A stretch of 64,000 bases of DNA from positions 62,001 through 126,000 of the forward strand of contig CDROCS010002621.1 of assembly GCA_977020255.1 (NCBI GenBank). Reading direction: 5' to 3'. The translations under genes were made by a program, and so were the position numbers. This DNA is from Obrimoposthia wandeli. Taxonomy: Eukaryota. Below are positions 15,201 to 45,100 of this stretch, piece after piece. Position 1 is the stretch's first letter, and the number at the start of each line of letters is the position of its first letter. The notes under the pieces were generated by a model. That model worked only from the letters and a program-made list of their open reading frames with translations. It had not been told where the DNA came from and did no database searches.

Positions 15201-16182
15201 TTAAATGTTTTGTGTTTTCTTAACAAATTTTATGACGTATATCAGATATTTATTTAAAATAAGTGTTAGTGTTTGACAGGATTTAATTTGAACCTTTTGA
15301 AAGAAAACCGTAACGGAACTCACTCATATTATCTTTGTTGTTGGTGCAGTTTGCTGAATGTGGCATGTAGCAGTGATCTTGGGGAACACCAACAAGAAGT
15401 GTGTCTTGGAGCTTTACGGTCACTGTGCAATTATCAAGATGATCTCAAGAAGGTGGGTGCATATGTGCATTAAATGGAGATCGTTGGATGAATGAAGGAA
15501 TTATAGATGCGTGTATGGAGGAATGATCGATCATTGGATGGAGGGATGATAGATGAGTGGATGGATGAAATATTGATAAATGGATTGATGTAGGGTGATA
15601 GATAAGAGGATGGTGGATAAGTGGATGTAGCGATGATGGATGAGTAGATGAACAGATAATGGATGGAAGGATGATGGATGAGTAGATTGATGGATAATGA
15701 ATGGAGGGATCATGGATAAGTGGATGGAGGGATCATGGATGAGTAGATTGATGAATAATGGATAATGGATAGAGGGATGAAAAAGTGGAAGGATATCGAG
15801 ATGAATGACTGCCTGAGTAGATAAAAATGAATTTGTTTCCCATTTCTATAAGGAACTGCAGAAACTGCAGCCGCGTGAACGCCTAGACAAACTGCAAAGC
15901 GGCATACAGGAGCACCATCGTCAACTGGAATCGGCAGGAGGACATACTCTATCAGGCTTGCCTCGTCCTGCTACTGCAGCTGCCTCGCCAGCCGGCACTG
16001 GGTCGCAGCTCTCACATCGCGGTACCTCTATGTTGCCAAGACCACTGACCGCCGTCACTCCACGACAACGGAGACCAATATCCACAACAAGCAGCAGCGG
16101 ACAGCATCATTTCACTTCGGCAGCGCTGGCTAGATATACTGCAATGCGCTGCCACATCAGCTATCTCACTAACCTGGCCTAG
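234..16182 (+). CDS. STK36: Serine/threonine kinase 36 / fused, C-terminal ARM/HEAT-repeat region; 5'-partial, kinase domain lies upstream of the window
   Basis: Fourteen GT-AG exons with consistent phases: 234-328, 2550-2613, 3403-3600, 5450-5665, 5916-6019, 6464-6583, 8187-8349, 9382-9547, 9655-9778, 11138-11195, 12531-12660, 14730-14802, 15350-15452, 15853-16182 (stop TAG). They join into about 647 aa. Motifs [48 protein letters not shown] and VCLGALRSL match vertebrate STK36 as I recall it ([35 protein letters not shown]). Confidence 0.88.
1455..1760 (+). mobile_element. Tc1/Tc3-like transposase remnant (N-terminal HTH region)
   Basis: [41 protein letters not shown], then in another frame [37 protein letters not shown]; both fit paired-HTH Tc3-type motifs. 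Confidence 0.6.
2260..2334 (-). mobile_element. Degenerate tRNA-derived (SINE-head-like) sequence
   Basis: Minus strand has a B-box-like GGTTCAATTCC about 55 nt after an A-box-like start; no intact cloverleaf. Confidence 0.35.
3990..5060 (-). mobile_element. Decayed non-LTR retrotransposon (CR1/L2-type RT) in an STK36 intron
   Basis: Minus strand LYADDTQL at 4621-4644. Related fragments of the same 3' region recur at about 11480-11720, 43940-44120, 49820-50500 and 62000-62110 (shared GATCAATCTGCAGTCATCATCGTT...CCTAAG-like core). Confidence 0.65.
6890..7420 (+). mobile_element. Possible DNA-transposon coding remnant (Academ-like motifs; family uncertain)
   Basis: Frame-broken translation [16 protein letters not shown] and a later TRILY resemble the VHxxFDxY...SxK and EEADTRI motifs; weak. 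Confidence 0.3.
7435..7841. mobile_element. MITE with about 100-bp terminal inverted repeats
   Basis: AATATTAGTAGGTGGATG...GGCTACCACTGTCCTTTAAAACCGTGCATGTGTGTGGAGTGAAATTTC is inverted at 7745-7841. A half copy of the end (CATCCACCTACTACTG) is at about 10395-10411. TA flanks are possible. Confidence 0.85.
13586..14000 (+). mobile_element. hAT/Charlie-like transposon 5' end, truncated
   Basis: CAGGCATGTCAAACACGCGGCCTGCGGGCCGCATGCGGCCC is a typical Charlie terminus, preceded by CTCTAGAT (fits the NTCTAGAN target preference). A possible transposase start [12 protein letters not shown] lies at about 13930. No right TIR found. Confidence 0.6.
15480..15800. repeat. Imperfect (GGAT/GAT)n low-complexity repeat in the last STK36 intron
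   Basis: Visible GATGGATGGATGAGTAG-type iterations. Confidence 0.85.
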
Positions 16183-22583: not shown

Positions 22584-23866
22584 AAAGTTTATAATATTAA
22601 AAAATATGTTTTAATTCATTTTTAATAAGATTATACTGTATTTTTTAGAATAAAATTATACTGTATTTTTTTTTAGAATAATTTCTTGGTTGTAATAATT
22701 AAAGTAAAGTAAAAATACTTTGTGGTACAGAGGTTTTGTAAGAAGTTTTCATTATTATTTTTAACTTTGTGGTACATACCGCCAGAGATTTTGCAAGGAG
22801 TTTTTATTGTTTTTAAACCCAACTACATTGTCTCGATCTATTAAAATACAAATTTAGAACAATAAATATACATTTATAAAATAAAAGCAAAAATAATAAA
22901 GATACATAATTCATATTTAAAATTCAATTTTCTATAAAAAATAAAAATTCGAAATTTAGTTGTAAAATATTAGGACTATTTTTGAAATAAAATACAAACA
23001 TATTATTTTATTTGGATTTGGGATTTTCACCAATTTATTTTGATATTTTTACTGATTCGAGTTGGAGGTCAGATACACTGGGATTATCAAATTAACAAAT
23101 TTTCATAGTTTTTGAAGCAATAGTTTTTGATTCAAAATTATCCTGTAATTGATTGAAGATATATTAATAGTTTATCTAAACATAATTTAAAATTAACAAA
23201 TTTTCAATATCAGTTTTTAAAATAAAAATAACGATAGCAGATTTGACTTAAGAATATATATTGATAGGTTAGAAATTTTTTCTATTACTTTGGTTGGAAT
23301 TACAGTTCAAATCACGGTAATCGATTATCATAAGGCCGAGCTGTATTTTGATCACAGAGTAGAGATAATTCCTGACTGTTTTAAAAAAAAAAAAAAAAAT
23401 CAATTTATTTAAATATACATTTTCTTTAATCGTTTTCAATAAAACTAGACAACAATATATAAACACATAAATTAATTTTCGACCCAGTACGCAGGATAAT
23501 AGTGAACAATACACAAAGATTTCAAAATCTAAACGTAGTGCTAATCTTCGCTGGAGACGCATTCAAACTAGGTTAGTAAGAACTAACATAAGTGAAACAC
23601 TACCACAGAGACCTAAATCTCAGATAAATTTTAGAACCAATAACGAATTTTTCCCTGAAACTCCGTTAGTTCACCAACACACGGATCGCTTAATTTCAAC
23701 CGACTCTGAAAACCAAAATCTAACATCAAATTCGGATACAGAAAGTTTATCTTCACCACAAACATCTGACTCGGATAGTTCGTCAGAGATAACAGAAGCA
23801 GTGGCCGTACCAGAACCACCTATTGTACAAATAAACAACGAACAAATAATCAATCAACCTCAAATA

Positions 23867-24968
23867 ATGGCTGAACATAAATTAAATGTTCCATTAGACG
23901 CTTTCAATGACGATAAATCTTCACTACCCGAATTTTTAAATAGATTTGATTCATTTGCCTAGGCATTTGAATGGACTAATGTAGAGAAACTTAGGGTTTT
24001 TCCGGCGTATTTAAAGGGCACTGCCTTAACAATTTATAGAGGATTAAATAATGAACAGAAAGACACATGAGACCATTTAGTTCAGAATTTTAAAATATGA
24101 TTTTAGGAGCACAGTCTGAACAAAATTACCTTAACCAATTTAGGCAACGTGAACAACATTTGGGAGAACCCACAAATATCTTTGCAGTTGAATTACGAAG
24201 ATTAGCCTTAAAATCATTTCCCGGAATTGAGGAAGTCTTAAGAGAACGTTTACTCATACATCAATTTCTATATGGGCTAAACAGTAAAATAAAAAATCAC
24301 CCAGCACTACTAGAAGTAGAAAATTTTCAACAAGCTGTAAATAAGGCTCAACTTGTAGAAACAAGATTAAACATGTTACAACAATCTAAAGTTTCAGCAT
24401 TAACCTTTGAAAAAATACAAAGACCAACAACACCACCAAATTTCAATCAAACTCAAAACTATAACCCAAACACGCAATCTAATTACCAAAACCAACAACA
24501 ATATACACCACCGACAAATAACTTTTATAGAAATCAAACAAACAGAAACTATAAAGACTCACAAATTACACAAAGACAAATTGTGGACTGCAAAATCACA
24601 CAATAGAGAATTGTTATAAAATAACCAACAACAAATTTTGTAGATTTTGTAAAAAAGACAATCATACTATAGAAACTTGCCGAAAATTGTTATACAGACA
24701 AGGTAATAATATAAGACCACAAAATAATAACTTTAATAATCCAAATAATAATTTCAAAAATGCAAATAGTAATTTTAGAAGCCCATATAATAATTTCAAT
24801 AATCAAAATAATCAAGCTAAATATTTTAATACTAATACAAAATTTTGTAAAATTTGTAATATGAAAAATCACAATACTGATGAATGTAGCAAACTAAATA
24901 CTATGATGAACCAATTTGGTAACACAACAATAAAACAACAACAACAACAACAACCACAGATTCAATAA
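23867..24968 (+). pseudogene. gag: gag (capsid plus nucleocapsid with CCHC zinc knuckles), copy A
   Basis: MAEHKLNVPLDAF...FLNRFDSFA*AFEW...LKGTAL...FRQREQHLGE...FAVELRRLALKSFP...LLIHQFLYGL is retrotransposon gag-like. Knuckles CRFCKKDNHTIETC (24639-24680) and CKICNMKNHNTDEC (24846-24887). Stops at 23960 and 24068; frameshifts near 24093 and about 24560. Confidence 0.88.
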
Positions 24969-25346
24969 ACAGTACAATTTAACAATCAAAATCAACAATA
25001 TACCCCAAGAAACCCTATTCGCACTATAGAAAATACAGAAACAACTCCAAACACAGACGAATTAGCATTGTTAAAATTACGACTTAAAGAAAGGGATAAT
25101 CGCTACAGAGAAATACACCAACAATGCCATAACAGTGAACCACAAACAGATAGAACAAACTTACAATCCGAATTTGGAGACATGTTTAGAGATGGTTGTT
25201 TGACATTACAAAAAAATAAATATACAATCACAAAAACAAACCAAACTACTCAAACACAAGAAAAGAAAGTAAAACACAAGAAAAAACGTAAAACACTAAA
25301 AAATCTAAAAACTAAAATTTTTAAAAATACAAATAATCTTAATAAA

Positions 25347-28300
25347 ATGATGAAAAAATTATGGAAAATTATTCAGATAATATTAATAATATGTCTAATT
25401 ATGAACATGATAAAACCAATTAATGCTTTAGAAGCATATGATTGTTCAAAATATAAAATTCAAAATCAATATTCTTTAATGGATTTACAGCAATGTGCAG
25501 ACGCTGACCCAAATGAGGTAAAAATCCAAAATACTAAGTTGTATCAAGTATATCAGGAAACAGATTTCATATATGCAGAAGTTTTCGAATGTAGAGTACA
25601 TGTAGAGACATTTATAACATATTGTGGACAACATAGTCACAATTCAATAGTAAAACCAGCATTAGGAAAAACACCAATAATAGTTGACGCTTTAAATTGT
25701 AAAGATGCTTTCGCAACATGAGAATTGAGAATAGATAGAGAAATTAAAGTCCGAGCAGCGAAAAATAAAATAATTCAACAAATGATATCAGTTCTAAGTA
25801 CGATTAAATCTGATGGAGAATGTACAACAGGAACTTATGTCGTAATGGGAGTTAAGCAAAGTGGTTTAGTAGTTAATAAAAATTTTGAAGTCGAAATAAG
25901 AACTTTCAAAGCGTTAGGATTAGGTTTTGATTAAAATTGAATAAATAATTGTTTTTTATAGTAAAATGAAAATCCTTGAAAGCAAGGTTAAGAATTAAAT
26001 AAATTTTAAAATCAAAATTAAATTATTAAAATTAAAATAAGAATAAATATTAGAAGACCACGAAGGTCGTGTATAATGCGTTGTATATAAAGGTTAAGTT
26101 GACAAAAGCAAAGTGCAAGAAAAAAGAGAATTAATCAACAGAAATTAATTAGCAGAAATTAATTAGCCAACGTCAGAAATCGCCACGTCAGCAAACGTCA
26201 GCAAAAGGTAAGCACATTTTAGTGCGATCAATTAATTTGCCTTGCAGATCCGAAGAAGTCAATCAACGGATCGCCAGGTGGAATTAGACTATATAAGTCT
26301 ACTCAGTTATTAGTTAGACCACGAAAAGCCAAAACAATACACAAGACAACAGATTCCAGTATCAGCAGCGCTTCGCAATCACGGTTAGTATTTATAGTGT
26401 TGGACTGACTAAATTATTGATTTCTAGAATCAGTCGATTAACAATTGTCAAATTCCCACACTTCGCCACGGGTCAGAAAATTACCGGCAATTTCGTTTAA
26501 CCGATCTCAGTCTATATTAACCGATCTCAGTCTATATCAACCAATCTCAGTCTATACCAACCGAGACAGTCTAATCTATAACATCTCGATCTCGGAGAAC
26601 TCTCTGGAATCGGCGAGAATCTAGGAGCCCACGAACCTGAGCGATCTTGGAAAACGGAACGACAGCAGAGATATCGGACACCTCCAGTCTTAGTGTAAGA
26701 CAGATAAATTAAATTGCTAAAAGTTTTATCGCTAAGAAGTTTTGGAAATTGCTAAAATGTTTTATCACTAGAAGTTTTGGAATTATTAAATTGCTAAAAG
26801 TTTTACCACTAAAAGTTTGAAATTGTTGAATTGCTAAAGAGTTTTATTACTGAAAGTTTGAAATTATTAAATTGCTAAAAGTTTTATCATTAGAAGTTTT
26901 GGAATTATTTATCACTAAAAGTTTTATCACTAGAAGTTTGAAATTATTAAATTGCTAAAAGTTTTATCATTAGAAGTTTTGGAATTATTAAATTGATAAA
27001 AGTTTTATCGCTAAGAAGTTTTGGAATTATTAAATTGCTAAAAGTTTTATCACTAAGAATTTTGGAATTATTAAATTGCTAAAAGTTTTATCGCTAAGAA
27101 GTTTTGGAAATTGCTAAAAAGTTTTATCACTAGAAGTTTTGGAATTATTAAATTGCTAAAAGTTTTACCACTAAAAGTTTGAATTATTAGATTGCTAAAA
27201 AGTTTTACCACTAAAAGTTTTGAATTATTGAATCGCTAAAATTGCATTAGAGTATATTATCAGTTTGATTAGTTGTGAAGTTGGATTACACCGATAATTC
27301 GACAAGAAAGTGTATTCCCATTTTAGAGGGGTTACCCTATCTAGAATCAACCCATATTTTTAGAGCAACCAGCTCTATAAATCTATAGCTTTGAACTTAC
27401 CCACGATCTAGAGGAAAGACTCTAAGAATCACCAACCCTAACCTTAAAATCCCATTTGGAATTTAATATTGATCACAGTTTTTAAAGAACATTGAAAGCT
27501 AAATTGGTTCAGTTATATTTCCTATATTTCTAGCAAACAACTGGCCCATCCTTTTAAAGCAACAGCTCTGTAAAACCTATAAACTTAATTTCCGTATTGG
27601 TTGGAGTAAAGACTCTAGCAACCAACTAATCCTATCTAAAAATCGATACGTGGTTCATCCCCACTTGTGTAGAGACTTATAGAAGTCTTAGAAATTTTTA
27701 CTGTAACCTTTTAGAAAATACGTACGTAAACGTATTGTTGTGTTTAATCTAGTGTGTTAAAAATAAACGATTTCCTACATTAGAAAGTATTGTTTTAAAC
27801 CCTTCAGATTAAGAGACATCAAAAGCAAACACCTTCAGATAAGCAATTGAGATAGGCAACCATAACATTAAGTAGGCCACGACCATCGTTAAGTCCTGCT
27901 TCTATAGAACTCACGTTGGGGCCCTCCGCACACAAGAGGATCTATATAAGTCTCATATAGAAACCCCAACAAAAGCAACATTCGACCCTTCCACAAACAG
28001 AATGGTAACAATGCCATTTTGTGAAGCAAACATAGGTCACTGTAACACGGGTTCTTCAATACTTTACTACAAAGTAAAAATGGATCAATGTAAATTAACA
28101 CATTTAAAATCAGAAACTTTTCAAATAATTCAAGGAAAAAGATTTAGAGATGATCCGGAACTAGATCAACAAATTCCAAAGGACATACGCAAAATATATA
28201 GAACTAGAAAAATACGAAAAACACCAACTCCAACTATATTAATGTCTATTGAACAAGGTTCAGGAATGCGATTTATTAAAAAGAAAGAGGAATCCCGATG

Positions 28301-29305
28301 TGGACACTCTGTTTATACAACTAATTATAAAGGAATATATTTATGTAATGAAAAATACATAATGCATAAACGACACCAACTAAATTTGATATTAAAAATT
28401 ATGATTATTTTAACAATAAAATAGATTATTTTTATCACAAAGGACTAATGACAATAGAAGCAATATATAGAGAAACCATAATGAATGATTGTAAATTAAA
28501 TCAAGAAATATTAAAAACAAAATTGGCAATTATTGCTACTAACCCAGAATTAATAACACCATTATTACCATTAGCTGACGGTACTTTTGGAAGAGTAATG
28601 GGAGAAGTGTTATACACTTATCAATGTAAAAAAGTAATAGTTAACATAAGAAATCACCAAAAATGTACAAAAGAATTACCAATTTCTTACAAAAATAATT
28701 CATTATTTGTAGAACCAATCACTAGAATCATACTTTTTAACACATTTAGTATAAAAGAAATAAACTGCTCAAACATAATGGCACCTCATTATCAAATTTC
28801 AAAAGATATTAGGATTTCACTTCCAAGAAGAGATATTGTCGCAGAACCAAAAAAATTACAATTAACCACTCTCAGCAACGACATCAATATACAATCAGAT
28901 AACGAATTAAACACAAAAGGAATTTATATACAGGAAAATATAGATAAGTTAAGAAAAGAAATTTTATTTCCACAAATAAGATCCAGAATTTTAACACAAA
29001 TCATAGAAAGATCAGTACTTGACGGAATTAGCCGTCTCGATTACGACTTATTACTTTCTCCAAATCATTTTATAAAAGCCACTAAAAACACCATGTCAAA
29101 AATATGGGGAAAATTTTTAATTTTTGGACAAGCATTTTCTGGATTAGTTGGAATTTATGCTATATTAATTTGCTTTAAGATTCTTCTAAGTCAAATTTTA
29201 TCAACATATTATATTTATAAAGTTGGAGGATTAACATGGAAATTAATCTTAGGATGTTTCCCATTTTTGGCAAAATTCTTATTTTTAATCATCATCAAAA
29301 CATAG
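25347..29305 (+). pseudogene. env: env-like glycoprotein resembling Chuviridae/Jingchuvirales glycoproteins, split by a solo LTR (25912-27971)
   Basis: Signal-peptide-like MMKKLWKIIQIILIICLIMNMIKPINA, then LEAYDCSKY...SLMDLQQC...EVFECRVHVETFITYCGQHSHNSIV, later NNKIDYFYHKG...MNDCKLNQEILKTKLAIIATNP...YTYQCKKV...ELPISYKN...FVEPITRI, and a C-terminal hydrophobic anchor (29100-29290). This cysteine/motif pattern is the one I recognise from chuvirus-type glycoproteins. Removing the insert restores RTFKATFDPSTNRMV in frame. TGA at 25719, frameshift about 28350-28400. Confidence 0.72.
25912..27971 (+). mobile_element. Solo LTR (family C, about 2.06 kb) inserted in env of copy A
   Basis: Ends CGTTAGG (probably TG mutated to CG) ... 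ACCCCAACA; 4-bp TSD AAAG (25908-25911 and 27972-27975); excision restores the env frame. Internal 20-bp repeats (26499-26570) and about 41-bp repeats (about 26710-27245). No internal coding sequence recognised. Confidence 0.8.
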
Positions 29306-32300
29306 TAAACACATTATCAAATGAAATGCGAGAAACAAATATACAAAAAATTACAAGTACCAAAGAAACAGAAAAAACGGAATCTTCACAATATCCTGAT
29401 TTAGAAAAATATATAGATAAAACAACTATACAAAAACCATCTGCACCAACAATATATACAATAAATCAAAAAGATAACGACAAACGACCATATGTAAAAG
29501 TAGAAATTAACGAATATAAACTTAAAGCTTTAATTGACACAGGATCAAGCGTAACAGTTTTAGACGAATCTTTCTTAAAAACACAACAAAAATTACTTCT
29601 TCTTAAGGAAAATAGTCAAGTCACAGCAGCAAACGGTCAACCCGTAAATATAATAGGAAAATTAGACTGTCTTTTTAAAAAAGGAGATAAATTCATAAAA
29701 ATACCTACAAGAATAATGAAAAATTTTCCTTGCCAAATGATCATAGGAATAGATACATTAAGAAAATTAGGAAATAATTTCCATTTTGATTTTGAAAAAA
29801 ATCAAATAAAATACATTTACAGACCTAACGCCAAAAATGAATACGAGTTAGAAATAAAAGGAGATATCATTCTCCAACCAAGAACAGAAACAATGTTACA
29901 ACTAGAAACTAACATAATCACAGAAAAAGATGTATTATTTGAACCTTATAAATATCAACAAGAAACCTTGAACTACGTTTTGCCAAATATAATTTGTAAA
30001 ATAAAAAACAACACAATACCAATCAGAATCCTAAATGCAAACATTAATGAAATTCATCTCAAGGAAGGAGTACGTCTTGGAAAAATAAGTGTTATTGAAA
30101 ATATTGAATTAATAGATAATGAAAAAATAGAAGATAAATCTAAGATAAATTTTAACGATATCAAATTAAATGATTATGAAAAATCAAAACTTAAAACTTT
30201 AACAGAAAAATATGATGTAATATTTGCTAAAAATGAATACGATTTAGGTCGAACAAATTTGATAAAACATAATCTTCCGTTAACAACAAACACAGCAATA
30301 AAACAACGACCCTACCGAATTCCATATGCCTACAGAGATGAGGCTCAAAGACAAATAAAAGGAATGTTAGAAAATGAAATTGTTAGAAGAAGTTTTTCTG
30401 CATGGACATCACCTGTTGTTTTAGTAAAAAAGAAAGATGGTTCTTTGAGATTTTGCGTAGACTACAGAAAACTAAACGAAGTCACTCACAAAGATACTTA
30501 TCCACTGCCAAGAATTGATGAAATATTAGACAAACTAAAAAATGCAAAAGTATTTACAACTTTAAATTTACAGAGTGGATACTGGCAAATAGAAATTGAG
30601 GAGTCAGATAAATATAAAACAGCTTTCTCAACAGGAGAAGGATTGTATGAATTCAATGTCTTACCATTTGGATTAACCGGAGCTCCAGCAACATTTCAGA
30701 GATGTATGAGCCATATTTTAATGGATGCAGATCACGTAATGGTATATATCGACGACATTCTTATTTTTTCAAAAAATTTTGAAGAACATTTATAAGATTT
30801 AGAAAACGTATTCTTAAGATTACAGGTGGCAGGATTAAAACTAAAACCAAAGAAATGTGAATGGATAAAAGATACAGTAAATTACTTAGGACATGCTGTA
30901 TCAGCAAAAGGAATACAACCAGACGAGAGTAATGTAGAAAAGATTAAAAATTTTCCGATCCCAAAAACAGTAAAAAATATACAGGAATTTTTAGGGCTTG
31001 CAGGATATAATCGAAGATTTATTAGAAATTTCGCACAAATAGCGATACCATTAAATAAACTTATTAAAAAAGATGAAAAATTTGAATGGGAAAAAGAACA
31101 ACAAGAATCTTATGAATATTTAAAACAAAAACTAATCGAAAAACCTATACTTAGATATCCTAATTTTAATAATTCATTTTTAGTTATGACTGACGCCAGT
31201 GGTTATGCGTTAGGAGCAGTTTTAGGACAACAGGAAAATAACGAAAAAGATCATGTGATAGCATATGCGAGCAGAGGTCTTAAAAAACATGAAAAGAATT
31301 ACTCAACGATAGAAAGAGAATGCCTAGCTATTTGCTTTGCAATGGAACATTTTAAACATTACTTATTAGGTCGAAAGGTTTATGTTTACACAGATCAAAG
31401 ACCATTACAATGGCTTTTAAATCATAAGGATACAACATCTAGATTAATGAGATGGGCATTGATTTTACAAAAATATGATATTGAAATAAAATATAGAAAA
31501 GGAAAATCTAACGCTAATGCAGATTGTCTATCACGAATAAGAGAAGAAATAAACGAAATAACTGCAAACGACATCGAATTAAATCTTTTTACAATAATTC
31601 AAGCTAAATATGATGAAAAAGTAATTACTAAACTTCAAAGCAAAGATAATGAAATTCAGCAAATAACTAAATACATTAGCACAAACGAAGTACCAACAGA
31701 TGAAAAATTAAGAAAACATTTAAAAACTCACGAATCACGATACAAATATAGTAATGAAATATTATATTATTTAAATGACAAAAATCTATATTCACTAGTT
31801 ATTCCTAAAGAAATTCAGTGTCAATTACTTCTTCAATATCATAATGGAGCCCTAGGAGGACATTTATCATCAAAAAAGACATATTCACGATTAAATTTAA
31901 AATACTATTGGATTGACATGAAAGAAGATGTAAAAAATTGGTGTAAAACATGTGAAATATGTCTTAAACGGAAAAATACTTTACGTACCACAAAAATTCC
32001 TTTAAAACCAATACCTTATCCATCAGCCCCCATGGAAACTGTTGCCATGGATGTAATGGGACCATTACCTGAAACACCCCGAGGAAATCGATATATAATA
32101 GTATTTTCTGATTATTTTACAAGATGGCCAGAGGCTTTTCCAACACATGATCAAAAGGCTGAAACCATCGCGAAGGTTTTAGTCGAAAAAATTATTTTTA
32201 CTTTCGGTGCACCCCGAAAATTATTAACCGACAAAGGTCCTGAATTTATAAATAATGTATTAGCGTCAATAGCTGAAATTTTTCACATAAAAAGATCAAT

Positions 32301-32858
32301 ACAACTCCATATCACCCTCAAACTGACGGGTTAGTAGAAAGATTTAATAGAACCCTCGAAGATATGATGGCATCATACACAAACAACAACCAAACAGATT
32401 GGGATTTACACATACCTCCATGCCTTTTTGCATATAGAACATCAGTACATGCATCCACAGGAGAAACACCTTTTTATCTTATGTTCCTCAGAGATCCTCA
32501 AATGCCTATTGACCTAACATTACTACAACCAACTACACAATACTTAGAAATACCTGAATATAAAATAGAAATTAGAGAAAGAATAAAACTAGCATTCGAA
32601 AAAGCTAAACTATTTGTAAAAAACATACAAGAAAATTACAAAGAATATTATGATAGAAGAACTAAGCCATTAAATATAAAAAGTGGAAGTAAAGTGATGA
32701 TTCACAATCCACAAATTAATGTAGGATTATCACACAAATTATCAAAACCATACAAAGGACCATATACAGTCATTAGTACCAACGGAACCAACATAACAGC
32801 TAAACTAGATAATGAACCAAAATCAAAAGAAATAAGAGCACATATAAACAGATGTTGA
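29236..32858 (+). pseudogene. pol: pol: aspartic protease, reverse transcriptase, RNase H, integrase (copy A)
   Basis: Protease ALIDTGSSVT. RT: SAWTSPVVLVKKKDGSLRFCVDYRKLN, YPLPRID, FNVLPFGLTGAPATFQ, YIDD. RNase H: TDASGYALGAVL, YSTIERECLAI. Integrase: zinc-binding H..GGH...CKTCEIC, MDVMGP, TDKGPEF, GLVERFNRTL (after a frameshift about 32290), KGPY. In-frame TAA at 30793. Confidence 0.97.
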
Positions 32859-32936
32859 GAAATACCTGAGGAGAATACAAAAGTAAAAAGTCACAAATAT
32901 AACTTAAGATCAACTAATGATAATACAATTCTACAA

Positions 32937-34253
32937 ATGTTGACAATAAAAAACTCACAAAAACAAAATAAAACTATTTTGAGTCATCAAACCATAAATA
33001 CAATAAAAATGTCAATAAAAGAAATTGGTAAAATAATGATGTTATTGATAATATATTTTACAATAAAATATAACCTACTGAAAGTAAACGCAGCAAACAT
33101 AAATGACAATCAATCAATCATACAACAACAAACAAATAAATACGACTCAACAACTCATCTCATAAAAAATTTTTGCTTAATAACAATAATACCTGAAATC
33201 ACATCAATAAAGTTAAAAATTTCTCTTCATACAAACAAAACAGGAAATGTGCAAATCACACAAACAGATAGAAAACAAAATATAATTATTTCAGGAATAA
33301 AATCACAAAAATATACAATACCATTTTTAAGAACAGAAACACAATATAAAATAAGAATTAAGTCGAAATTAAAAAATATAACAATCTATGAAAGAATTAT
33401 AGAAACTCACATATACCTAGCATCAATATTAAAAACAACAGCAAAATATATATCAAAACATAAAATAATGATAAAATGGGAATTTCAACTAAAAATAGAT
33501 GACTTAGATAAAGCCCTCATTAGAATTAGATATAGAGGACATAATGCTAATTTTTGGAAAGACTCAGAAAAACAATTAGAAAATACACAAACTAAAACAA
33601 ATTTAACCATAGAAAATATAAGATATCCGGAGAAAATAATAATGGATAATAGAGAATGCGTAATCACTAATAAACCAATAATGTACAGACAATGGAGTCA
33701 AAAGTTTGAAAGTTATAAAAATCTAACAAAATTAACAATTTTAGGAAATAAGATATCCAAACTATATCAACCTACAATTTTTTGTGGTCGTTGGTCAGCA
33801 GTAAAAATTAAGAAATATGTTAAAGAAACAACCAAAAAACAAATGCTACATACCACAGCATTAACATCAAAGATTTACAGAATTACAAATCAAGTTGAAA
33901 TTACGGAGAAAATAAGAATTAAATTAAAATTAAAAACAACAAAAACAATATCCTATAAATCATTTAATAAAAGTTTAAAAATACACTATGGTAAACAAGA
34001 ACATTCAAGGAATGAAGATAAAAAAGAACTTATAATAATAGTTATAGTAATCGAAATAATTACATTTATAAATCAAATATCATGGAGAATTTTAATTTTG
34101 AAACATACAAAAATGATAGAAACAAAACAACGAAAACACTTTTGTGGCCCCCCAGGCCCTTTTACTATTTATATTATTCCCAAGGATGAGAATTCTTCAG
34201 AATTATCCATAAATACTGTAATAGAAAATAAGAAAAGAAATATAACACAATAA
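32937..34253 (+). CDS. Element-encoded putative type I membrane protein with FN3-like beta-sandwich domains (438 aa)
   Basis: Uninterrupted ORF. Hydrophobic signal-like segment IGKIMMLLIIYFTIKYNLLKVNA; FN3-like motifs YTIPFLRTETQYKIRIKS and IMIKWEF...IRIRYRG...FWK; several N-x-S/T sequons; C-terminal hydrophobic stretch LIIIVIVIEIITFINQISW. The FN3 call is motif-level inference only. Confidence 0.55.
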   Translation: MLTIKNSQKQNKTILSHQTINTIKMSIKEIGKIMMLLIIYFTIKYNLLKVNAANINDNQSIIQQQTNKYDSTTHLIKNFCLITIIPEITSIKLKISLHTNKTGNVQITQTDRKQNIIISGIKSQKYTIPFLRTETQYKIRIKSKLKNITIYERIIETHIYLASILKTTAKYISKHKIMIKWEFQLKIDDLDKALIRIRYRGHNANFWKDSEKQLENTQTKTNLTIENIRYPEKIIMDNRECVITNKPIMYRQWSQKFESYKNLTKLTILGNKISKLYQPTIFCGRWSAVKIKKYVKETTKKQMLHTTALTSKIYRITNQVEITEKIRIKLKLKTTKTISYKSFNKSLKIHYGKQEHSRNEDKKELIIIVIVIEIITFINQISWRILILKHTKMIETKQRKHFCGPPGPFTIYIIPKDENSSELSINTVIENKKRNITQ

Positions 34254-34449: not shown

Positions 34450-34845
34450 ATGAACAGATTGGCAAAAGTTTGTAAAAAATGCAAAAAATTAGAGAAAAAG
34501 ATTCGAGATGTTTCCAGACAGCATGACGACTACTATATAAAGATCACAACTCAAAATGAATCACTGAAACAGTTAATAAAACAAAGTGTGGAAGAAAAAT
34601 TGAATAATGATTTAACAATTGACGAACTAGAAGGGAGATTGACACATAGTTTTGGCAGAATAGACTATTTAATACAACAAACTTTAAGTCAACGATCAAC
34701 TATAGCCTCATTAAGAAGACAAATGATGACCTATAGCGACATGATAAACTTTTATATGACCATTAATCCTACTATCCCAACTAATACAACACTTGATGAT
34801 GGATATGACTCGGATATGAACATTGGTGAACAAAACTCTGGTTAA
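34450..34845 (+). CDS. Element-encoded small coiled-coil protein (131 aa), function unknown
   Basis: Intact ATG-to-TAA ORF with heptad-like helical composition and N-terminal CKKC. A degenerate homologous sequence lies in copy B at about 38750-38900. Confidence 0.6.
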   Translation: MNRLAKVCKKCKKLEKKIRDVSRQHDDYYIKITTQNESLKQLIKQSVEEKLNNDLTIDELEGRLTHSFGRIDYLIQQTLSQRSTIASLRRQMMTYSDMINFYMTINPTIPTNTTLDDGYDSDMNIGEQNSG

Positions 34846-35013
34846 ACTATAACCATACATCCTTCTTTTGTACAAATTGTCTAACTTTTTGTTAATAAGT
34901 TTATTTTCATGACAAATCCCACATACTGCATGGATAAGACTGATATTTTTATAACTTTAAGACTGTGAAATAATTATATTATTTTATTCAACTAACAAAT
35001 TGATTAAAGCAGA

Positions 35014-36225
35014 ATGGATAACAATCACCTGGATACGACTCCAGACCAGCTCACTCGGTCAGATCAAACAAAAAGCACAGCAAAAATAGAAAGAGGAAAA
35101 TAGGAAAATATGCCAGAAAGGTGGTATTTAGCAAAATTCCTTTATCAAAAGATGCGTCAGTTTAGCATTGCATACTTTAGAAACAACGGAGGAAGAAAAA
35201 TGTTTTCAAATCAAACATTTCTTCCTAATAAGTTAAAAATTACCACAGAGGAAAGAACAAGCGCACTTATTTTTTCCAATGAGAAAAGACCAACCCATAT
35301 GGCTCTCAGCGAAATATTCCCCGATAATAATTGTGAAAAAATATATATTCACGTGGCACTAGGAGTGGCCCATTTAAAAACCAAATCAGATAAGACCTTA
35401 AACTTTCTGATGATAGGAAATCATACCTACACCTTACAAGCAGCACAATTAGAAAATAAATATAGCATAAAAATAGGAAGAGGACCAAATCTATTATTTA
35501 TAGAAAAAATAAGAAAAGCAGAAGTACCTCAACAAATAGCCCTTTTTGAATTAAAAAACGCACAGAAACCAGCAATTTTGTTCCTCGATTGCGAAATGGT
35601 GATATCAGTGGATAAACAGCCAGTTTTAGCAAGTGTTTCTATTATAAATTACATAGGCAACGTAATTATAGATACACTGTGCATAACTAGAGACAGAGTA
35701 AGAAATTACGTTACTAGAATAACTGGACTGTCAGATAGAAAGTTACAAGGATGTAGAGATGCTGATGAAGTAATTGAGGAAGTAAAAAACATTGTGAATG
35801 GTAACATCATCGTAGGTGTGGGACTAACAAACGATTTAAAAGCTTTACGCCTACAGAAATGGATGTTATTCAACATTGTTGATTTAGGAATATCTAAAAG
35901 CATAAAATCAGAACTAAATCACAATCACCCAAATATTGGACTCGCCAACATGGTACGGAAATACTTAAATGTAGAAACACAAAAAGGAGTCCACACTAGC
36001 ATGGAAGATGCAAATCACACCCGAAAAATTTTCATAATGAAGGAGGAAATGTTGAATAGAGAGTTTGATTTGACCGAGGTGATGAATCCACCATCTAGCG
36101 AGAACAACCCCAGTTCATCGTTCTCACAAATCCGGAGTCCGGTACACAAAACTCCCCGATTTTGTTGGATTAAGGTAGTACTATTATTATTTTTATTCTG
36201 TTTTCATTCTTGTCTAAATTTTTAA
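35014..36225 (+). CDS. Element-encoded REX4/ISG20-like DEDDh 3'-5' exonuclease with an unknown N-terminal domain
   Basis: ExoI LFLDCEMV (D 35587, E 35593), VLASVSIINYIGNVIIDT, NYVTRITGL, ExoII IVGVGLTNDLKAL (D 35833), ExoIII QKGVHTSMEDA (H 35992, D 36007). The ORF track starts at 35110; the upstream in-frame ATG at 35014 is separated by one TAG (35101), and copy B is open across the equivalent segment. Confidence 0.85.
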
Positions 36226-36570
36226 CGATATTTAAACAGACATGATTGTGATTAGTAAAACATTGATCAGTTATAACATACAAACAACACTAGTTAACCA
36301 TAGAAACAAGACAAAATAGTTTTACTAATAATTAAGATAAAAATTATAATTCTGAGGACAGAGACTTTTATGACCCGGAGGATTGTTGGGAAAATATTAT
36401 AGCTATTTATTTTGAAAAAATAAAAATATAAATATATATATAAAAAATCTTAAAAATAAAAAGTAAATAAGAATTAATTAACTAAAGAATTAATTAAGAA
36501 CTTTCCTTAATTAGGGAAAAGTTCTATTTAGAAAATATGCACTTTGGCATTTTAGTCTCAAGAGTGATCA

Positions 36571-36622
36571 ATCTCCGACGGGAAAAAAGCCCGTTTCGCC
36601 CTACCGGGCTCATCAGGGAGAT
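36571..36622 (-). ncRNA. Type I hammerhead ribozyme
   Basis: Minus strand reads AUCUCC-CUGAUGA-GCCC-GGUA-GGGC-GAA-ACGGG-CUUUUUU-CCCGU-C-GGAGAU: complete catalytic core, three perfectly paired stems and a GUC cleavage triplet (cut between 36577 and 36576). Confidence 0.92.
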
Positions 36623-37309
36623 GGCTTGTTATCTCTAACTTCGCGGTGGATTCCGCGAAGCCAGAGATAACAATAATAAAATGCCAGGGAAAAGAGGGAA
36701 AGATTCCCCCTTTCATGTGCCGATGAATATCGTCGACATGTGATGTTGGTGTGCGCAAGTGCACAATTCAACACACACACACACTCACTCAACTTTCACT
36801 CACTCACACTCACAACTCACTCAACTTTCATACTCACTCTCCTTACTCACTCACTCACATTATGTTTGGTGTGTATGTGTGTATAAAACTTTCCCATCTG
36901 CCCAGATACGATGTTTATGGATGGAATTTTCGGATCGGCGTCGGTGTGTTTGGGCTGCACACCGAGTTCCCTCTCTGCCCAGATCCGCTGCCATCGGTGT
37001 ATGTGTGCAGCAGTATTTCTTCTTGCAGTTTCTGATTTGTCTGATCGTTTACCAGTGGAATTGAGGTTGTAGTGCAACTGATTGACTTGTTTTCTATAGT
37101 TTGAAGTGGAGCTTTGATTTTTTAAGATTCACATTCGAACAAGATAGTCTAATTGGATTAACAAACAGAAAAAGCTCTGGAAATTGCAACATCACTGTCA
37201 GCAGTTTGTTTGAATATTTAAGCTGCACACTGCTTACTAAAAGGCCAGTGGAAAAAATTTTATTACTAAATTCTTAAAAATTTGGAATCGAATCTATCGA
37301 ATAAATATA

Positions 37310-37805
37310 TTATAACAATTTGAACAATTTTATTTGCAGCTATAACAATTTGAACAATTTGACCATTTCCGGATATTGATTTGATTTAGGAACAGGACTA
37401 TATTGTTATTCTAAAATATAACAATTTGAACTATTTGATTTGCAGCTATAACAATTTGAACAATTTGACCATTTCCGGATATTGATTTGATTTAGGAACA
37501 GGACTATATTGTTATTCTAAAATATAACAATTTGAACAATTTGATTTGCAGCTATAACAATTTGAACAATTTGACCATTTCCGGATATTGATTTGATTTA
37601 GGAACAGGACTATATTGTTATTCTAAAATATAACAATTTGACTTTCAGCTATAACAATTATAACAATTTGACTTTCAGCTATAACAATTTGAACAATTTG
37701 ATTTGCAGCTATAACAATTTGAACAATTTAATTTGCAGCTATAACAATTTGAACAATGTGATTTGCAACTATAACAATTTGAACAATTTGACCATTTCCG
37801 GATAT
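37310..37805. repeat. Nested tandem repeats (106-bp x3 and about 30-bp units) in the copy A LTR
   Basis: GACCATTTCC recurs at 37361, 37467 and 37573; ATAACAATTTGAACAATTTGATTTGCAGCT units follow. Confidence 0.9.
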
Positions 37806-37871
37806 TGATAAGATTGGGAAAATAAAAAGAATTGATAATCAGAAATTACTTGTTTTTTCATTTAATTAACA

Positions 37872-40650
37872 CATATATGGCATAAGTATTAACAACAGAA
37901 AAACAAAAAACAAAAAATAACATAATGATCAAGTGGAAAATTCAACAAAAAATAGACGACTTAGACAAAGCCATTATTAGAATTATATAAAAGACTTAAT
38001 TCTAATTTTTAGAAAGATACAAAAAAACAATTAGAAAAATTTCAAGCCAAACAAATTTGATCATAAAAAATTTAAGATATTCAGCAAAAAAATCATACAG
38101 AATAGGGAATATGTGATCACTAACAACCCAATAATGTAAAGACAATGAGGAAACAAATTTGAAATTTGTAAAATAATTAACAAAATTAACAATTCTAGGA
38201 ATAAAGATAAATATAACAATTCACGATTTTTTGCGGTAACTGGCTATTAATTGAAGTTAGTGAATACATTAAAGAAACTGCCACAAAACATATACAACAT
38301 ACAATAAGACACACAACTAAAATATATCAAAATACAATTCAATTTAATATCCCAGAATTCAAAATTTTTAAAACAAAATAAACAATATTTTAAAAGTTTT
38401 AATTAAAACGTTGGGGTGTTTTATAGTAAACAAAACTACTCTTACGATGAAGATGGAACAGAACTCATAATAACAATAATAATAATTGAAATATTAATAC
38501 TCGTCATAAAAACATCGTGGAAAATCAGAATTTCAAAACACAAGAAAATTTCAAAACAAACTCCTCGAATTAATTTTATGGGCTCCTAAGACCATTTATA
38601 ACATATATTATACCAAACTCTACAAACTCATCCAATGTATCAATAAACACGTTAATTGAAAACAATAAACAAACACGACAAAAAACCTTTACTAATTCTA
38701 GGTATTTTTATATTAGTAAATGTATCATCATTTTTTTAATAAATTTAAAATATCATTGGGAAAACTCCACGCCTGCAATCAAAGTCATAAACTAAAAAGA
38801 AAAATTCAACACGTAAAACATCAGCAAGATGATTATATTAAAAATATAAACAAAATGACAAACTGAAATAGAATATCAAAGATTGGTGGACGAAAATATT
38901 AATCAAAATATAGAAATCAATAAACATGAAAAGGAAATTAAATCTAATTCCTATACAAGTAAATAAGATAATTTTTATCGTCGAATTGATGCCTAACAAA
39001 CAATATTATTATCTCTACATGCGCAAACCCGACTATTGATAAACATATTTATTTTTCCAAACATGAAATGAAATTTATTTTTCGAAACGATTCGGGAAAT
39101 GTGTCTGAAAATTAGTCTTTGTAACCAAATTAACGTTTTTCATTTGTTATTAAAACCAGCTATCTCATAAAGCGCAAATATTTTTTTATTTCTGACAATG
39201 ATAAATATTCATTGTAATAAACCCCCTAATAACCCCCCACAAACTAACCATTCTTTCATAACTTTTCTTATTACCAAATACATTTTTTTATGAAAATTTA
39301 CATATTTTTTGAAACACCAACAGATGGATATAACCTCCAATCACTTGGATATGACTCCAGACCAAAAAGGGAATACTCGGTCAAATAAAAAACTAAACTC
39401 AAAAACAATTGCAAGAGTGACGCTAGGGTGCATGCCAGAAAAATCAGTTTTAGCAAGATTTCCTTACCAAAAAATGCGCCAGTTTTGTATCGAATTTTTT
39501 AAAGAAACGGTAGAGGCAGAAAATTGTTTGCCATCAAACGCCCATTCACAATAAGCCAAAAATCACCACAGAAGAAAGTATGAGTGCATTGATTTTTGCC
39601 AACGAAGATAGTGATTGTGAAAGTGATTGAAAAAGTGATTGTGAAAAAATATTTATTCACCTGCACGAGGAGTAGCTCATAGAACATATAATACGCTAAT
39701 TTTTTTATGATATGGAATCACACATTCACTTTACTAGCAGCATAGTTAGAAAATTTGTACTACATAAAAATAGCAAAAGATCTAAAGCAATTATTCATCG
39801 ACAAAATAAGGACATCGGAAATACCACAACAGATAACCCTAATGGAATTGAGAGAAAGTCAGAGGTCGGCAATACTGTTCATTGATTCTGAAATGGTTAT
39901 AACAGTGAACAAACAACCTGTATTGACAATTGGGTCTATTATAAATTACACAAGCGAAGTAATGGTAGATACACTATGCATTACCAGGAAAAGGGTAAGA
40001 AACTATGTGATGAGAATAACAGCCTTACGATTAAAAATGTGGATTTTGTTCAACATTGTTGATTTGAAAATATCAACGACCCCAAAAATGAGTTAAATCA
40101 TAGCCACCCAAACATTGTACTTGCAAACATGATACGCCAATACCTAAACATAGAAACTCAAGCAGGAGTTAACACTGCCATGGAAGATGCAACTCATATC
40201 AGATAAAATTTCGGATTAAGGAAAACAATGTCGAGAGAAGAGTTTAATTTGACCGAGGTACTAAACCCTATAATAGACAATACGAACAGACAAAGTTCCT
40301 CGGTTGAGACAGTGACCAAAGGCCTCGAATGCGGCACACAGAAATTTCCAATTGTCCTGATTTAAGGTATTTTACTCTTCTCGTTCTTTCTTGATAAACA
40401 GTTTTATTTCTGAAAAACATTACCTACCCAAACATATAGCAATAACAAACCTTTTTATTTACTCAATAACCTATAGATGCAATACTTTAAATTTTATCTA
40501 AAATAACCAACTATTGACTTTTAACATTAATGCATTTTTCGTTTGCACTAGGTACAGTTAGTCGTAACATTGATGATCAAATCGAATAATTTAAATTTTA
40601 GTACAAAAACGTTGTATTTCTGAAGATAACATTTTTTCTAACCCCGGTAT
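37872..40650 (+). pseudogene. Copy B, 3' remnant: degenerate FN3-like ORF, coiled-coil ORF and DEDDh exonuclease
   Basis: Colinear with copy A 33408-36383, e.g. AAATAGACGACTTAGACAAAGCC vs AAATAGATGACTTAGATAAAGCC; MPEKSVLARFPYQKMRQF vs MPERWYLAKFLYQKMRQF; FIDSEMV; TAMEDA. Confidence 0.85.
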
Positions 40651-41300
40651 TGTTGGGAATATTAAAGATTCCCGTGAAATCAAATATAATAATGGCAGAA
40701 GTGCGTTACGGTAGGGAATATTCGATCATAGATCAGGTGGCCCCTTCTGGGTCGCTTCAATCTGCAATCGAAATAAATTCAGAAAGGATTTGATGCATCC
40801 CTCTTTTTTCACCTGTACAGTACATTCTCCCTGCCAGTCCCCAAGATATCTCATCTCTACCCTGATGTGGCTTCTCACCGTATCTCCTTTATTGCAAGTC
40901 CCAGGATCAACACTTCTCCATGTGAGTTTCCCAAGCAAGGTCGAATGTCTTCTCGTTACCAGTAATGAACAAAATGATAAAAACCTACACAATCCAACTT
41001 ACAATCTTGTCTGAATTATTGTGTGTGCTGAGTTATACAAGATGTATTTGATTAAAAGTGAGCAACATCCGTGTGTGTGTGTTTGATTATTTTGCATGCA
41101 CACTTTTCTGTATTATTCTTGTCTCGTTTTACCCATTTTCCTCTCGTTCTTGGCAGACACAAGTCATAATGTTGCCACCACCACATTGAGTTGTTGTCCC
41201 ACTTTCTGAGTTTTATCCTGTTGACTATGTGTTTGAATGTCACTATCTTTGATTGCATGTTGAAAAATATTGTGTGGTAAATAATCCTCCCTTATAAACT
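40651..41300 (+). repeat. Putative 3' LTR of copy B (right end not resolved)
   Basis: TGTTGGGAATATT starts directly after TTCTGAAGATAACATTTTTTCTAACCCCGGTAT, the counterpart of the sequence preceding copy A's LTR. The end coordinate is a guess. Confidence 0.45.
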
Positions 41301-42146: not shown

Positions 42147-45100
42147 ATGAGATTTCGACTATTTTTCATTTATTATTGTATCCAGACAGTAATATCCCTG
42201 AGTTCTTTCATTAAAAACTATGATTCTGTGAACTATGATACTGATTCACATAAGCGATTTCGGCGGTCAGCAATTCAGAATAATGACGGCAGCTACAATG
42301 TTATATTTCAAGCATTTAAAAAGAATTTTCATCTGAAATTGAATAGAGTTGAAAATATATTTGACGATAATACTGAAGTTTATCTGGGAAATAATCGCTA
42401 TGAACTTGACGATATGGTGCCGGTTAGTGGCAAATTGAAATACAAGGCATCGAGTAGTATTTACGGAACTATGGTTGATGGAGTATTTCGTGGAGTGATT
42501 GTGGAAGATTCCCGAAACATATCCGATGGAAAATGGTTCGTTGAACATTCGGGGTACTATTTCGACAGTGATCCTGGATTTCATTCCATTATTTACCACG
42601 ACTCTCACGTCAATCACCGCACTAGTGGCTGTGGCTGGCTTAATTCCAATGTCAGCAATGAAATGTACCGAATGACCTTATCTCACAATAAACATCCAAA
42701 CTTAACACATTGTAAAAAGTGAGTGTAGATTTACAATTTATTTTATATAATTATTTGCGTAACATTAACATGATCAACTTTAAAAATGTGTCAAAAAGTG
42801 TCAGAATTACATAAGGTAAATAATTACTTGATTGTTGCATGTTTGATAAGTGTTACATAAAGCCAATTTTAATTTTGTTTTATGCAGGTTTCTAAACTTT
42901 AATTATAAACTAAATTATCTACTAAACGATACCATTTACTACACACCATATTCTATTTGATTTTCACTTTTACCCATACGTTTTAATATTTTATTGAGTA
43001 ATGTGATTTAATCGAATTTTAAGGGCTGTTTGAAATTCGCATGAACAGCTAATCATTTTAAAATTAGTATTATTATTTTATTCGCGTCTGGTTTTCAGGA
43101 TATTTTGATTTTATAATGTGTTTCTTATGTTATTTTGAATCCTGACATAATAAAGAAACTGCATATTTTGATGGTTTAATATAAGTAATGGGTGAGTGTT
43201 TACACTATTGACAATGCGAGCATAGTTGTTAATGACTGTCAAACACTGGGATAATGAGCAGCCTCTTTATTTGTACAGCCACACAGACAATAATAGACTT
43301 GAACATAATTAACATAAGCGATACACATGACATACAGTGTTGGTTAGTATCTGTATAACAGTGTAATGTTGCTTTACATTTTTAAAATATCTTATGCATT
43401 GCTGTACACCACTCTCAGTTTCCTGACAAGCTTATAATTACATAAGAATATTGGGTCAACTGTTTTCTTTTCTGCTACCTTAACTGTATGAAAACCAACG
43501 AACCTACATTTACTGTCAGTCATTGAGAATATAAACAAAACATCGATATGCATTAGAAGTCATCAATAGTGACCTATTTGTGTCAAATATTCGTTATCAA
43601 CTTGATTGTGAACTAGATTACAGATAACATAATGATGATTTGTGTTTACAAAACTTGGACAATTATCTTAACCAGTTTTTTTGACTCTATTCGGATTTGA
43701 GAGAATTATTATGATAAATAAATATGTTGGTTTTTAACTGTTTATTAGATAATTATCTGTTTTATGGGGTTTAAGGTCCTAGTTGCAAACGTTTACTAGG
43801 CTTAACAATAGTATATTTAATATGGTGCTAATATCTATTTAATCTATGATTTATTACTCAAAAGCACTTCTTGTTTTCTATTATTTTAGGTAATATTTTC
43901 TAAACTGTACAGTTTTCTTCTGCTTCTTGAGTTATTCAACATTGTTACAGTTTCTTATATTCATCGGTAAATTGTTGTAAAATTTCAGAGCAATAAATTT
44001 CAAATAGTCCATTACTCGGTTTGTTATTCGAAAAATTCTTGATCATTCTTCAGTCATCGTTGCTCCTAAGATTTTTGTGAGATAATACATCGTCAATTAA
44101 GTGATAACTCGTAGCCTAAATGAATATATAAAAACACAATATCAGATTTTATGTTTATGCTGAATGGAAAGAAAATCCTGGAACGAGTGGGTTTATGGTA
44201 AATTGTACACAGTTTGAGGAGAAGAGTGTTTCGACGAATAATTGTAATTTGTGATGACTTCAAGTTATTACATGTGGTAAATGTTTAGTGTATGGCAACT
44301 AATTTGCAGATATGGAAGTTATACTTATAATTTATCATTTTGTCGGATCAAGCTTATAGACTGTTGATTTTTTTAATGTAAAACATTCCAGTAGAAAAAA
44401 AATTGTTTAACGATGTTATCAGGTCCTCAAAAGTCACCGAAGACATCTTTCACGGTCGCCAGAAACGGTCCGCAAAGTCCAAAAGCAGTCAGTACGTGTG
44501 CAATCTCTACTTGCAGTCTGACACTTTTTTGTGGAACAAGGTCTTCAATCTGCCTCACATCCGACAGAAAAAACATCTTGCCATGAAAGAAATCAGCTCC
44601 ATTTTCACGCAGCATGTCCAGGGCGCTCAAGCCATCTATCAGAATACTGTCTTCCAGAAGATAGAGGTAAGCAGCGAGAAGATACTACACTTCTTCGATT
44701 GATTGTAAAATCCAACATTTATGTTAGATGTAAGCCGCATATACTGGTCACAATTCGTGATAACCTTGGAAAGGAAACACCAAATAGGAATTAAAATAAA
44801 AGTTTACATATTTAACATCCATTTAATTCAAATTTTAATTTTCGATATCATCTCCATCAATCTCTATAACTCTCTATAGTCGATATCTGCAATTAGCGAA
44901 ACCATCCTTTAACAATACGTATGAAACTTCTTCAACATATTTTATTCTAATTTTGAGCTGTGAACAAGTCAGTGTAGTTTTTTTAACTTAAATTGCCCAA
45001 AAGATATACAAAAAGTGTAAAGTTCTGTCAACATATAAATTTATATGGACATTTAGGAAAAACAACTATTTGGCATCTCAAAAAACTTATATTTACAAAA

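Follow-up and report, generated by a model that had tools for sequence, protein, structure and literature searches.

A predicted DEDDh exonuclease with a beta-helix partner domain, kept as cargo by gag-env-pol errantiviruses of Obrimoposthia wandeli

A high-copy Ty3/gypsy errantivirus of gag-env-pol order, as its sequence identifies it, carries in Obrimoposthia wandeli a gene for a beta-helix domain joined to a DEDDh exonuclease; the gene lies downstream of pol as the last one ahead of the 3' LTR, and substitution patterns show that the nuclease is kept intact by selection on transposing copies. We analysed a 64,000-nt stretch of the genome assembly (the window; Table 1), in which two copies of this gene, A and B, are both damaged; judged across copies, the gene is real and functional at the family level. 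An initial annotation of the window had described a REXO4/ISG20-type DEDDh exonuclease with intact catalytic residues, carried by a retroelement and read as one ORF. The enzyme type, the residues and the position after pol within an LTR element all held in copy A; the single open frame did not, codon 30 of the reported ORF being a stop (35101-35103). As predicted from sequence, the product is very probably a catalytically active 3'-5' exonuclease, translated from a subgenomic mRNA of the gene's own that would arise by splicing in most lineages and from a dedicated promoter in one.

Table 1. Features of copy A with its carrier element, and of copy B, in the window
Feature	Position	Strand	Remarks
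gag region	23471..24968	+	several broken frames; two CX2CX4HX4C knuckles read from translation; same place in other copies
env 5' part, gB/Monjiviricetes-type fusion glycoprotein	24969..25911	+	PF24664, E 2.8e-18; between gag and pol
2060-nt insertion splitting env	25912..27971	-	4-nt duplication flanks; ends like reversed LTR of the group
env 3' part	27972..29305	+	PF24664, E 4.7e-56
pol: protease, RT, RNase H, integrase	29221..32858	+	Ty3/gypsy order (Pfam); stops and frame changes
orf4, no assigned function	32859..34253	+	distant elements continue the polyprotein after integrase
orf5, 131-aa ORF	34450..34845	+	AG 8 nt ahead of ATG
branch-point-like CTAAC and CAG splice-acceptor-like site	34992..35012	+	just before the family's start codon
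exonuclease gene, copy A	35014..36225	+	in-frame stop; open from second ATG at 35110
N-terminal double-stranded beta-helix domain (AlkB/cupin fold)	35110..35529	+	without the conserved HxD...H...R set
DEDDh 3'-5' exonuclease domain	35563..36069	+	five catalytic residues present; Pfam, PDB matches, fold model, alignment
3' LTR, first ~480 nt	36384..36859	+	~1.2 kb in other copies
copy B decayed orf4	37874..38672	+	
copy B decayed exonuclease gene	39324..40263	+	no ExoII (deletion) and no His in ExoIII; CAG immediately ahead of ATG
copy B LTR-like start	40650..40680	+	

The open frame that remains in copy A (35110-36222) encodes 371 residues (P0001). In 20 of 29 further top-scoring copies the frame starts at the upstream ATG and runs for 389-406 residues, and the hydrophobic C-terminal tail of copy A is common to only two of these 29, most of which differ at the end. 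Pfam places RNase_T on residues 158-308 (E 8.6e-08, above the cut-off), and the top PDB sequence matches are ISG20 (E 1.6e-09), ISG20L2 (E 3.4e-09) and SDN1 (E 6.5e-05). D160, E162, D242, H295 and D300, with codons at window positions 35587, 35593, 35833, 35992 and 36007, align with D11, E13, D94, H149 and D154 of ISG20, where Ala substitutions impair activity (PMC10085690). The fold model, built from a 12-sequence alignment (mean pLDDT 80, nuclease domain mostly 85-97), is closest to ISG20 (Z 22.2, rmsd 2.0, 162 aligned), a match that gives the nuclease domain a DnaQ-like fold; PAN2 follows at Z 17.5, SDN1 at 15.6, RNase D at 11.0 and nsp14 at 10.1. Arenavirus NP ExoN and coronavirus nsp14 are likewise virus-borne DEDDh nucleases, nsp14 being distant by that score, and we infer that the element nuclease arose independently of both. 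The proposed analogy with their action on dsRNA is weak, given the gap between the ISG20 and nsp14 scores and the arrest of ISG20 at a 3' hairpin (PMC10085690); we considered NP-like dsRNA degradation and ranked it low. ISG20 has no activity on ssDNA and attacks the RNA strand of RNA/DNA hybrids (PMC10085690).

Across the 32 element sequences compared, the ExoIII His and last Asp are present in every one, the ExoI Asp and Glu in all 31 that cover them, and ExoII has Asp or Glu throughout, with Glu for Asp in nine. The element nucleases resemble ISG20, ISG20L2 and REXO4 (Rex4) in fold, in the five catalytic residues and, for copy A, in the DCEM motif, but differ in being element-borne, in their N-terminal beta-helix domain and in residues around the active site: the Arg at ISG20 position 53 (Y-R-T motif) occurs in 0/32 against 113/123 REXO4-type proteins, and the GH-motif His (ISG20 H89) in 10/32 against 122/123. 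At the D90 position Asp stands in 27/32 and Gly in five, among them copy A, which has Val at position 53. Six of the ten REXO4-type proteins that lack the Arg are among the rows nearest the element clade; comparison of these rows suggests that its loss may have been inherited from the donor. Could the protein be an RNA-binding scaffold in which catalysis is minor, like Maelstrom or EXD1? The Glu substitutions in ExoII, the loss of the preceding conserved His in 22/32 and a mean net charge of the nuclease domain of -0.5, against +3.7 in REXO4-type proteins, would fit such a role, which we nonetheless consider very unlikely, the other four catalytic residues being invariant across 20-35% identity.

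How widely the family carries the gene was measured in two ways. A genome search with the nuclease gave 6052 candidates, a figure that is no copy number; 110 of them were scored, all 88-100% identical, which sets a lower bound. Because these had been chosen by nuclease likeness, we also took an independent sample by integrase, keeping every fourth of the top 150 integrase matches, which gave 38 places. The nuclease gene lies downstream in 35 of the 38, while one copy runs off its contig and two have no gene within 4 kb; all three motifs were found by pattern in 29/38. The gene is thus a family trait, as first proposed. Pairwise dN/dS was calculated with pieces below 85% identity dropped, piece ends trimmed and pairs that are not independent. 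The integrase C-part (38 copies) gave 0.08 and the nuclease (28 copies) 0.14, while the values were 0.44 in the N-terminal domain (27), 0.60 in orf5 (33) and 0.66 in orf4 (31). Variants common to at least two copies gave 0.09 in the nuclease and 0.23 in the N-terminal domain, against 0.34 and 0.76 for singletons (shared versus singleton variants over the whole gene, Fisher p 0.0015). One young copy compared with nine older subfamily copies gave 0.05-0.19 in eight of the nine pairs and 0.42 in the other, and three divergent subfamilies of the same genome, 43-46% identical to P0001, keep all five catalytic residues.

A HMMER search of 1.84 billion representatives yielded a set of proteins that share this two-domain architecture. 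Of 160 sequences, 155 entered a tree, the other five being left out for their short domains; it gathers the 32 element nucleases into a single clade and places the 123 REXO4-type proteins outside it. The tree is without ISG20, REXO1, SDN and PAN2 rows and hence unrooted. In a 39-row subset the clade has support of 100/100, apart from 24 REXO4-type rows. The host REXO4, which has an intron within its nuclease domain and a first exon 33% identical to P0001, falls outside the element clade and groups loosely with a trematode protein. Forcing it together with the element nucleases of the same genome is rejected (AU p 1.1e-05), and so is a constraint that joins both host REXO4 and the trematode protein to every element row (AU p 0.028). 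A query intended for host REXO1-like genes proved to be a REXO4 and returned element copies.

These results bear on the possibility, raised at the outset, that the gene is a neutral passenger, a processed copy of host REXO4. The element nuclease is indeed intronless, and old decayed copies compared among themselves give a dN/dS of 0.52, as expected from decay after insertion. The initial annotation had named three findings that would point to a passenger, namely nesting within host REXO4, neutral dN/dS and absence from most family members, and what we found is the AU rejection (in a tree without ISG20, REXO1 and PAN2 rows), a nuclease dN/dS of 0.14 and presence in 35/38 copies. Together with the low identity to the host exon, the gene's own N-terminal domain and its presence in the same slot of distant elements, this leaves the passenger reading virtually refuted. 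That the nuclease was captured from a host holds as an ancient capture only, from some member of the DEDDh cluster of REXO, ISG20, SDN and PAN2 (PMC3985635).

Among relatives 23-35% identical, four were placed in metagenome contigs (L031-L034). L033 and L034 have the nuclease gene in the same slot, behind one long gag-env-pol polyprotein (~3000 aa), and the L031 and L032 contigs are too short to show pol. The polyproteins, L033:1-9639 (3212 aa) and L034:2-8938 (at least 2978 aa), include env and pol; by eye, additional segments of protease type (DTG) and transmembrane stretches seem to lie on either side of pol in both. Comparison of such distant copies shows that the gag-env-pol Ty3/gypsy errantivirus lineage has carried the beta-helix and DEDDh gene for a very long time. 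Among other searches, a word-index protein search with P0001 scored none of 1941 candidates, an IMG/VR scan gave 13 pattern matches with none confirmed, and ESM Atlas queried with P0017 returned RNase_T clusters only.

By Pfam, pol has the PR-RT-RH-IN order of Ty3/gypsy elements (Metaviridae), and a class III fusion env (PF24664) is placed between gag and pol, all in one polyprotein in L033 and L034; the gag region had no Pfam match. Gag-env-pol order with a gB-type env has been described for nematodes, bryozoans and flatworms (PMC13524379), and the env motifs match those of Smed_errantivirus_1-6 in the supplement of that paper, a comparison made by eye and for env alone; this and the loose grouping of host REXO4 with a trematode protein are consistent with a flatworm host. 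There is no 5' LTR within the window. At two of five places examined elsewhere, paired TG...CA LTRs of 1.1-1.2 kb, about 99% alike, have 4-nt target duplications and a primer-like site starting TGG. The polypurine tract (36370-36383), short and atypical, is present in 24 of the 29 family-A loci examined. The insertion in env, which contains an array of ~40-nt repeats at 26756-27270, is probably a solo LTR of a related element, and weak, scattered Pfam matches suggest that orf5 is probably a coiled-coil protein. Older pol fragments, 79-85% identical to the element pol, lie just upstream (20155-20927 and 22258-22581).

At L093/L094, L097/L098, L100, L114 and L132, 3' cassettes of orf4, orf5 and nuclease are only 38-69% identical to the window on backbones (gag/env/pol or integrase) 90-98% identical to it, a pattern indicating cassette exchange between subfamilies. 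A sibling gag-env-pol family (L096:3290-9357, L095:5379-8000) has, past its integrase, an ORF for a dual-specificity phosphatase (PF00782, E 7.7e-39), a 799-aa ORF of no assigned function and three short RING-finger ORFs; downstream of integrase, its two loci gave no nuclease match. With phosphatase and RING in place of the nuclease, the slot appears to hold host-interaction cargo, not core machinery, and divergent nucleases on near-identical backbones likewise favour host conflict.

In another reading, the nuclease would help replication by acting on the element's own intermediates, through removal of hybrid or primer RNA, trimming of RNA or cDNA 3' ends or proofreading of reverse transcription, a role that would suit long elements. 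The action of ISG20 on hybrids is in its favour, as are the atypical polypurine tract and the lost 2'-OH contacts (R53 in 32/32, H89 in 22/32), which fit a DNA or hybrid substrate; for the DEDDy ORFs of rotifers, Rodriguez et al. put forward a role in the processing of 3' ends (PMC5408684). However, the nuclease has an ORF to itself and shows no sign of being packaged, and the sibling family does without it although its pol is ~50% identical. Backbones 90-97% identical to the window can also exchange nucleases that share just 44-46% identity, which looks less like co-adapted machinery than like host conflict. On balance we find a replication role somewhat unlikely.

Signals ahead of the gene point to a dedicated mRNA. 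An AG lies 0-3 nt before the nuclease start codon in 32 of 34 family-A copies, and a CTAAC-type branch point in 32 of 34; the AG also occurs, within the same distance, in copy B, L033, L034 and subfamily D (2/2), and before the ATG in one of the two subfamily C copies shown, being missing in L054. By eye, L031 (1-420) and L032 (1-280) have no AG and show CCAAT and TATA-like words, an apparent internal promoter, ahead of the nuclease, which in L031 is followed on its 3' side by a classic purine tract. Accessory ORFs with an AG within a few bases of the ATG start at 34450 and 35014 in the window and at L033:11586 and L034:9105. In flatworms, an AG before the ATG could mean spliced-leader trans-splicing instead of cis-splicing.

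The N-terminal domain had been called unrecognised, which is accurate as far as Pfam goes, with no match, but its fold is recognisable: residues 5-140 are modelled as a double-stranded beta-helix (block pLDDT 77-94) that matches Ofd2 (Z 10.6, rmsd 2.8, 127 aligned) and ALKBH6 (Z 10.3, rmsd 4.4, 134 aligned) and, tied with these AlkB matches, a cupin (Z 10.2, rmsd 3.4, 94 aligned); Foldseek lists cupins. Inspection by eye of 27 aligned domains revealed no conserved HxD...H metal triad and no 2OG-binding Arg, and a single His (H81) is near-invariant. Profile comparison with 15 bacterial AlkB proteins gave a probability of 0.1%, a PDB sequence profile search brought up neither an AlkB protein nor a cupin even with E allowed to reach 10, ESM Atlas gave no usable match, and a single-sequence fold (pLDDT 52, best Z 4.2) was uninformative. 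In P0001 the domain is basic (22 K+R versus 11 D+E), and from the model we infer a non-catalytic binding module. AlkB genes in the assembly, considered as element cargo, proved to be bacterial (15 of 20 matches inspected); they stand amid bacterial neighbours in bacterial stretches (L035-L049), some on long contigs, that represent contamination or symbionts.

What might such a nuclease do for its element? Both piRNAs and siRNAs are protected by a 3'-terminal 2'-O-methyl group, and our tentative first choice is a counter-defence enzyme that would nibble the 3' ends of single-stranded RNA, including the methylated last nucleotide of these small RNAs. In the host cell the nuclease would remove 3'-terminal nucleotides of single-stranded RNA, the protecting 2'-O-methylated nucleotide would also be taken off, and the trimmed piRNAs and siRNAs would be destabilised; the N-terminal domain, basic and non-catalytic, would contribute contacts to RNA or to a partner, comparable to the extra domains of SDN1. 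End-trimming is ranked first because the methyl mark protects these RNAs and because SDN1, itself a DEDDh nuclease, removes such a mark, taking the methylated last nucleotide from AGO-bound miRNAs and so initiating small-RNA turnover (PMC6123492). A 2'-O-methyl group runs into R53 and D90 of ISG20; at the 3' terminus of an RNA it stops the wild-type enzyme, but the R53A mutant degrades such RNA (PMC10085690), and R53 is the Arg that all 32 element sequences lack. In planarians, PIWI represses Gypsy elements (PMC8532177).

Several observations run against end-trimming. Loss of Arg53 is not specific to the elements (yeast PAN2 has Leu, and 10/123 REXO4-type proteins are without the Arg), and the second methyl sensor, D90, is still Asp in 27/32. 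Because R53 makes contact with the 2'-OH, losing it might just as well point to a DNA substrate, and SDN1 retains the Arg yet trims methylated RNA. A nuclease without guidance would put the RNA of the element itself at risk, and only 14 of the 38 integrase-picked copies have an open frame of at least 340 aa. A more elaborate form of end-trimming, an anti-piRNA factor in which an ISG20-clan nuclease without its 2'-O-methyl gate is steered by a dead AlkB-like domain to strip the methylated end of PIWI-bound small RNAs, on a 3' cassette swapped in an arms race with the host, seems to us unlikely. We give as little credence to a general destroyer of RNA, one that would attack host transcripts or rival viral and retroelement RNAs and so cause shut-off or superinfection exclusion: the nearest structure is antiviral ISG20, and retrotransposon accessory domains have been proposed to act in antiviral defence (PMC6338049), but no specificity determinant is known, and the selection we observe acts on copies that transpose and not on a locus fixed in the host.

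Exonuclease cargo has precedents. DEDDy exonuclease ORFs are known in rotifer LTR elements and Terminons, with suggested roles in 3'-end processing or silencing (PMC5408684, PMC6431247), and ORF3 of the bdelloid elements Vesta and Juno and of Terminons is, like the gene described here, an accessory ORF after pol for a DEDD 3'-5' exonuclease with intact catalytic residues (PMC5408684, PMC6431247). That ORF3 is RNase D/mut-7-like and takes the place of env, and intragenomic variation in the rotifer env and GDSL ORFs tested is mostly neutral (PMC5408684), whereas here a DEDDh enzyme occurs alongside env, is fused to a beta-helix domain and is under purifying selection. Identity with the rotifer ORF3 was rejected, ExoIII having His and not Tyr in 32/32 and the model matching RNase D at Z 11.0 against 22.2 for ISG20. 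Arabidopsis SDN1 offers another parallel, as a DEDDh nuclease with an N-terminal partner domain and a model for methylated small-RNA trimming (PMC6123492), but it is a host gene with an RRM domain, keeps the Arg and is structurally more distant than ISG20.

Among relatives of the carrier, Smed_errantivirus_1-6 of Schmidtea mediterranea share gene order and env class, and the available text and seven supplementary files of that study contain no occurrence of exonuclease or DEDD (PMC13524379). Burro giant gypsy elements of planarians also have env in frame between gag and pol and host-derived cargo; they are 25-30 kb long with apoptosis and ubiquitin cargo, and the sections available of PMC6431247 name no exonuclease. 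Our literature search, which took in few of the subscription journals and not Repbase, turned up neither a DEDDh/REXO4-type gene nor a beta-helix fusion of this kind in LTR elements. The gene would then represent a second, independent class of exonuclease cargo for LTR elements, with evidence from selection that such cargo works for the element, and an element-borne nuclease may help a retrotransposon to defeat the small-RNA defence of its host. Do animal transposons carry enzymes against piRNA defence? The question becomes testable with one recombinant protein, and RNAi and piRNA tools exist in the flatworm phylum; if confirmed, read-through of 2'-O-methyl by a naturally occurring ISG20-clan enzyme would also shed light on how ISG20 works.

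Copy B, at 69-74% nucleotide identity, belongs to an older subfamily and retains just the 3' part of an element. A homologue does lie at the same position there, as the initial annotation noted, but intact catalysis does not extend to it: the exonuclease aligns as four pieces in three frames with four stops, and a 39-codon deletion takes out ExoII. Elsewhere in the window, a host exon at 42147-42722 resembles a metalloprotease prodomain with a weak PF01562 match, presumably of the ADAM family; a host-gene search with it returned no scoring match. Tandem arrays lie at 37293-37858 (~30/106 nt), 54409-55056 (18/36 nt) and 15498-15795 (GGAT-rich).
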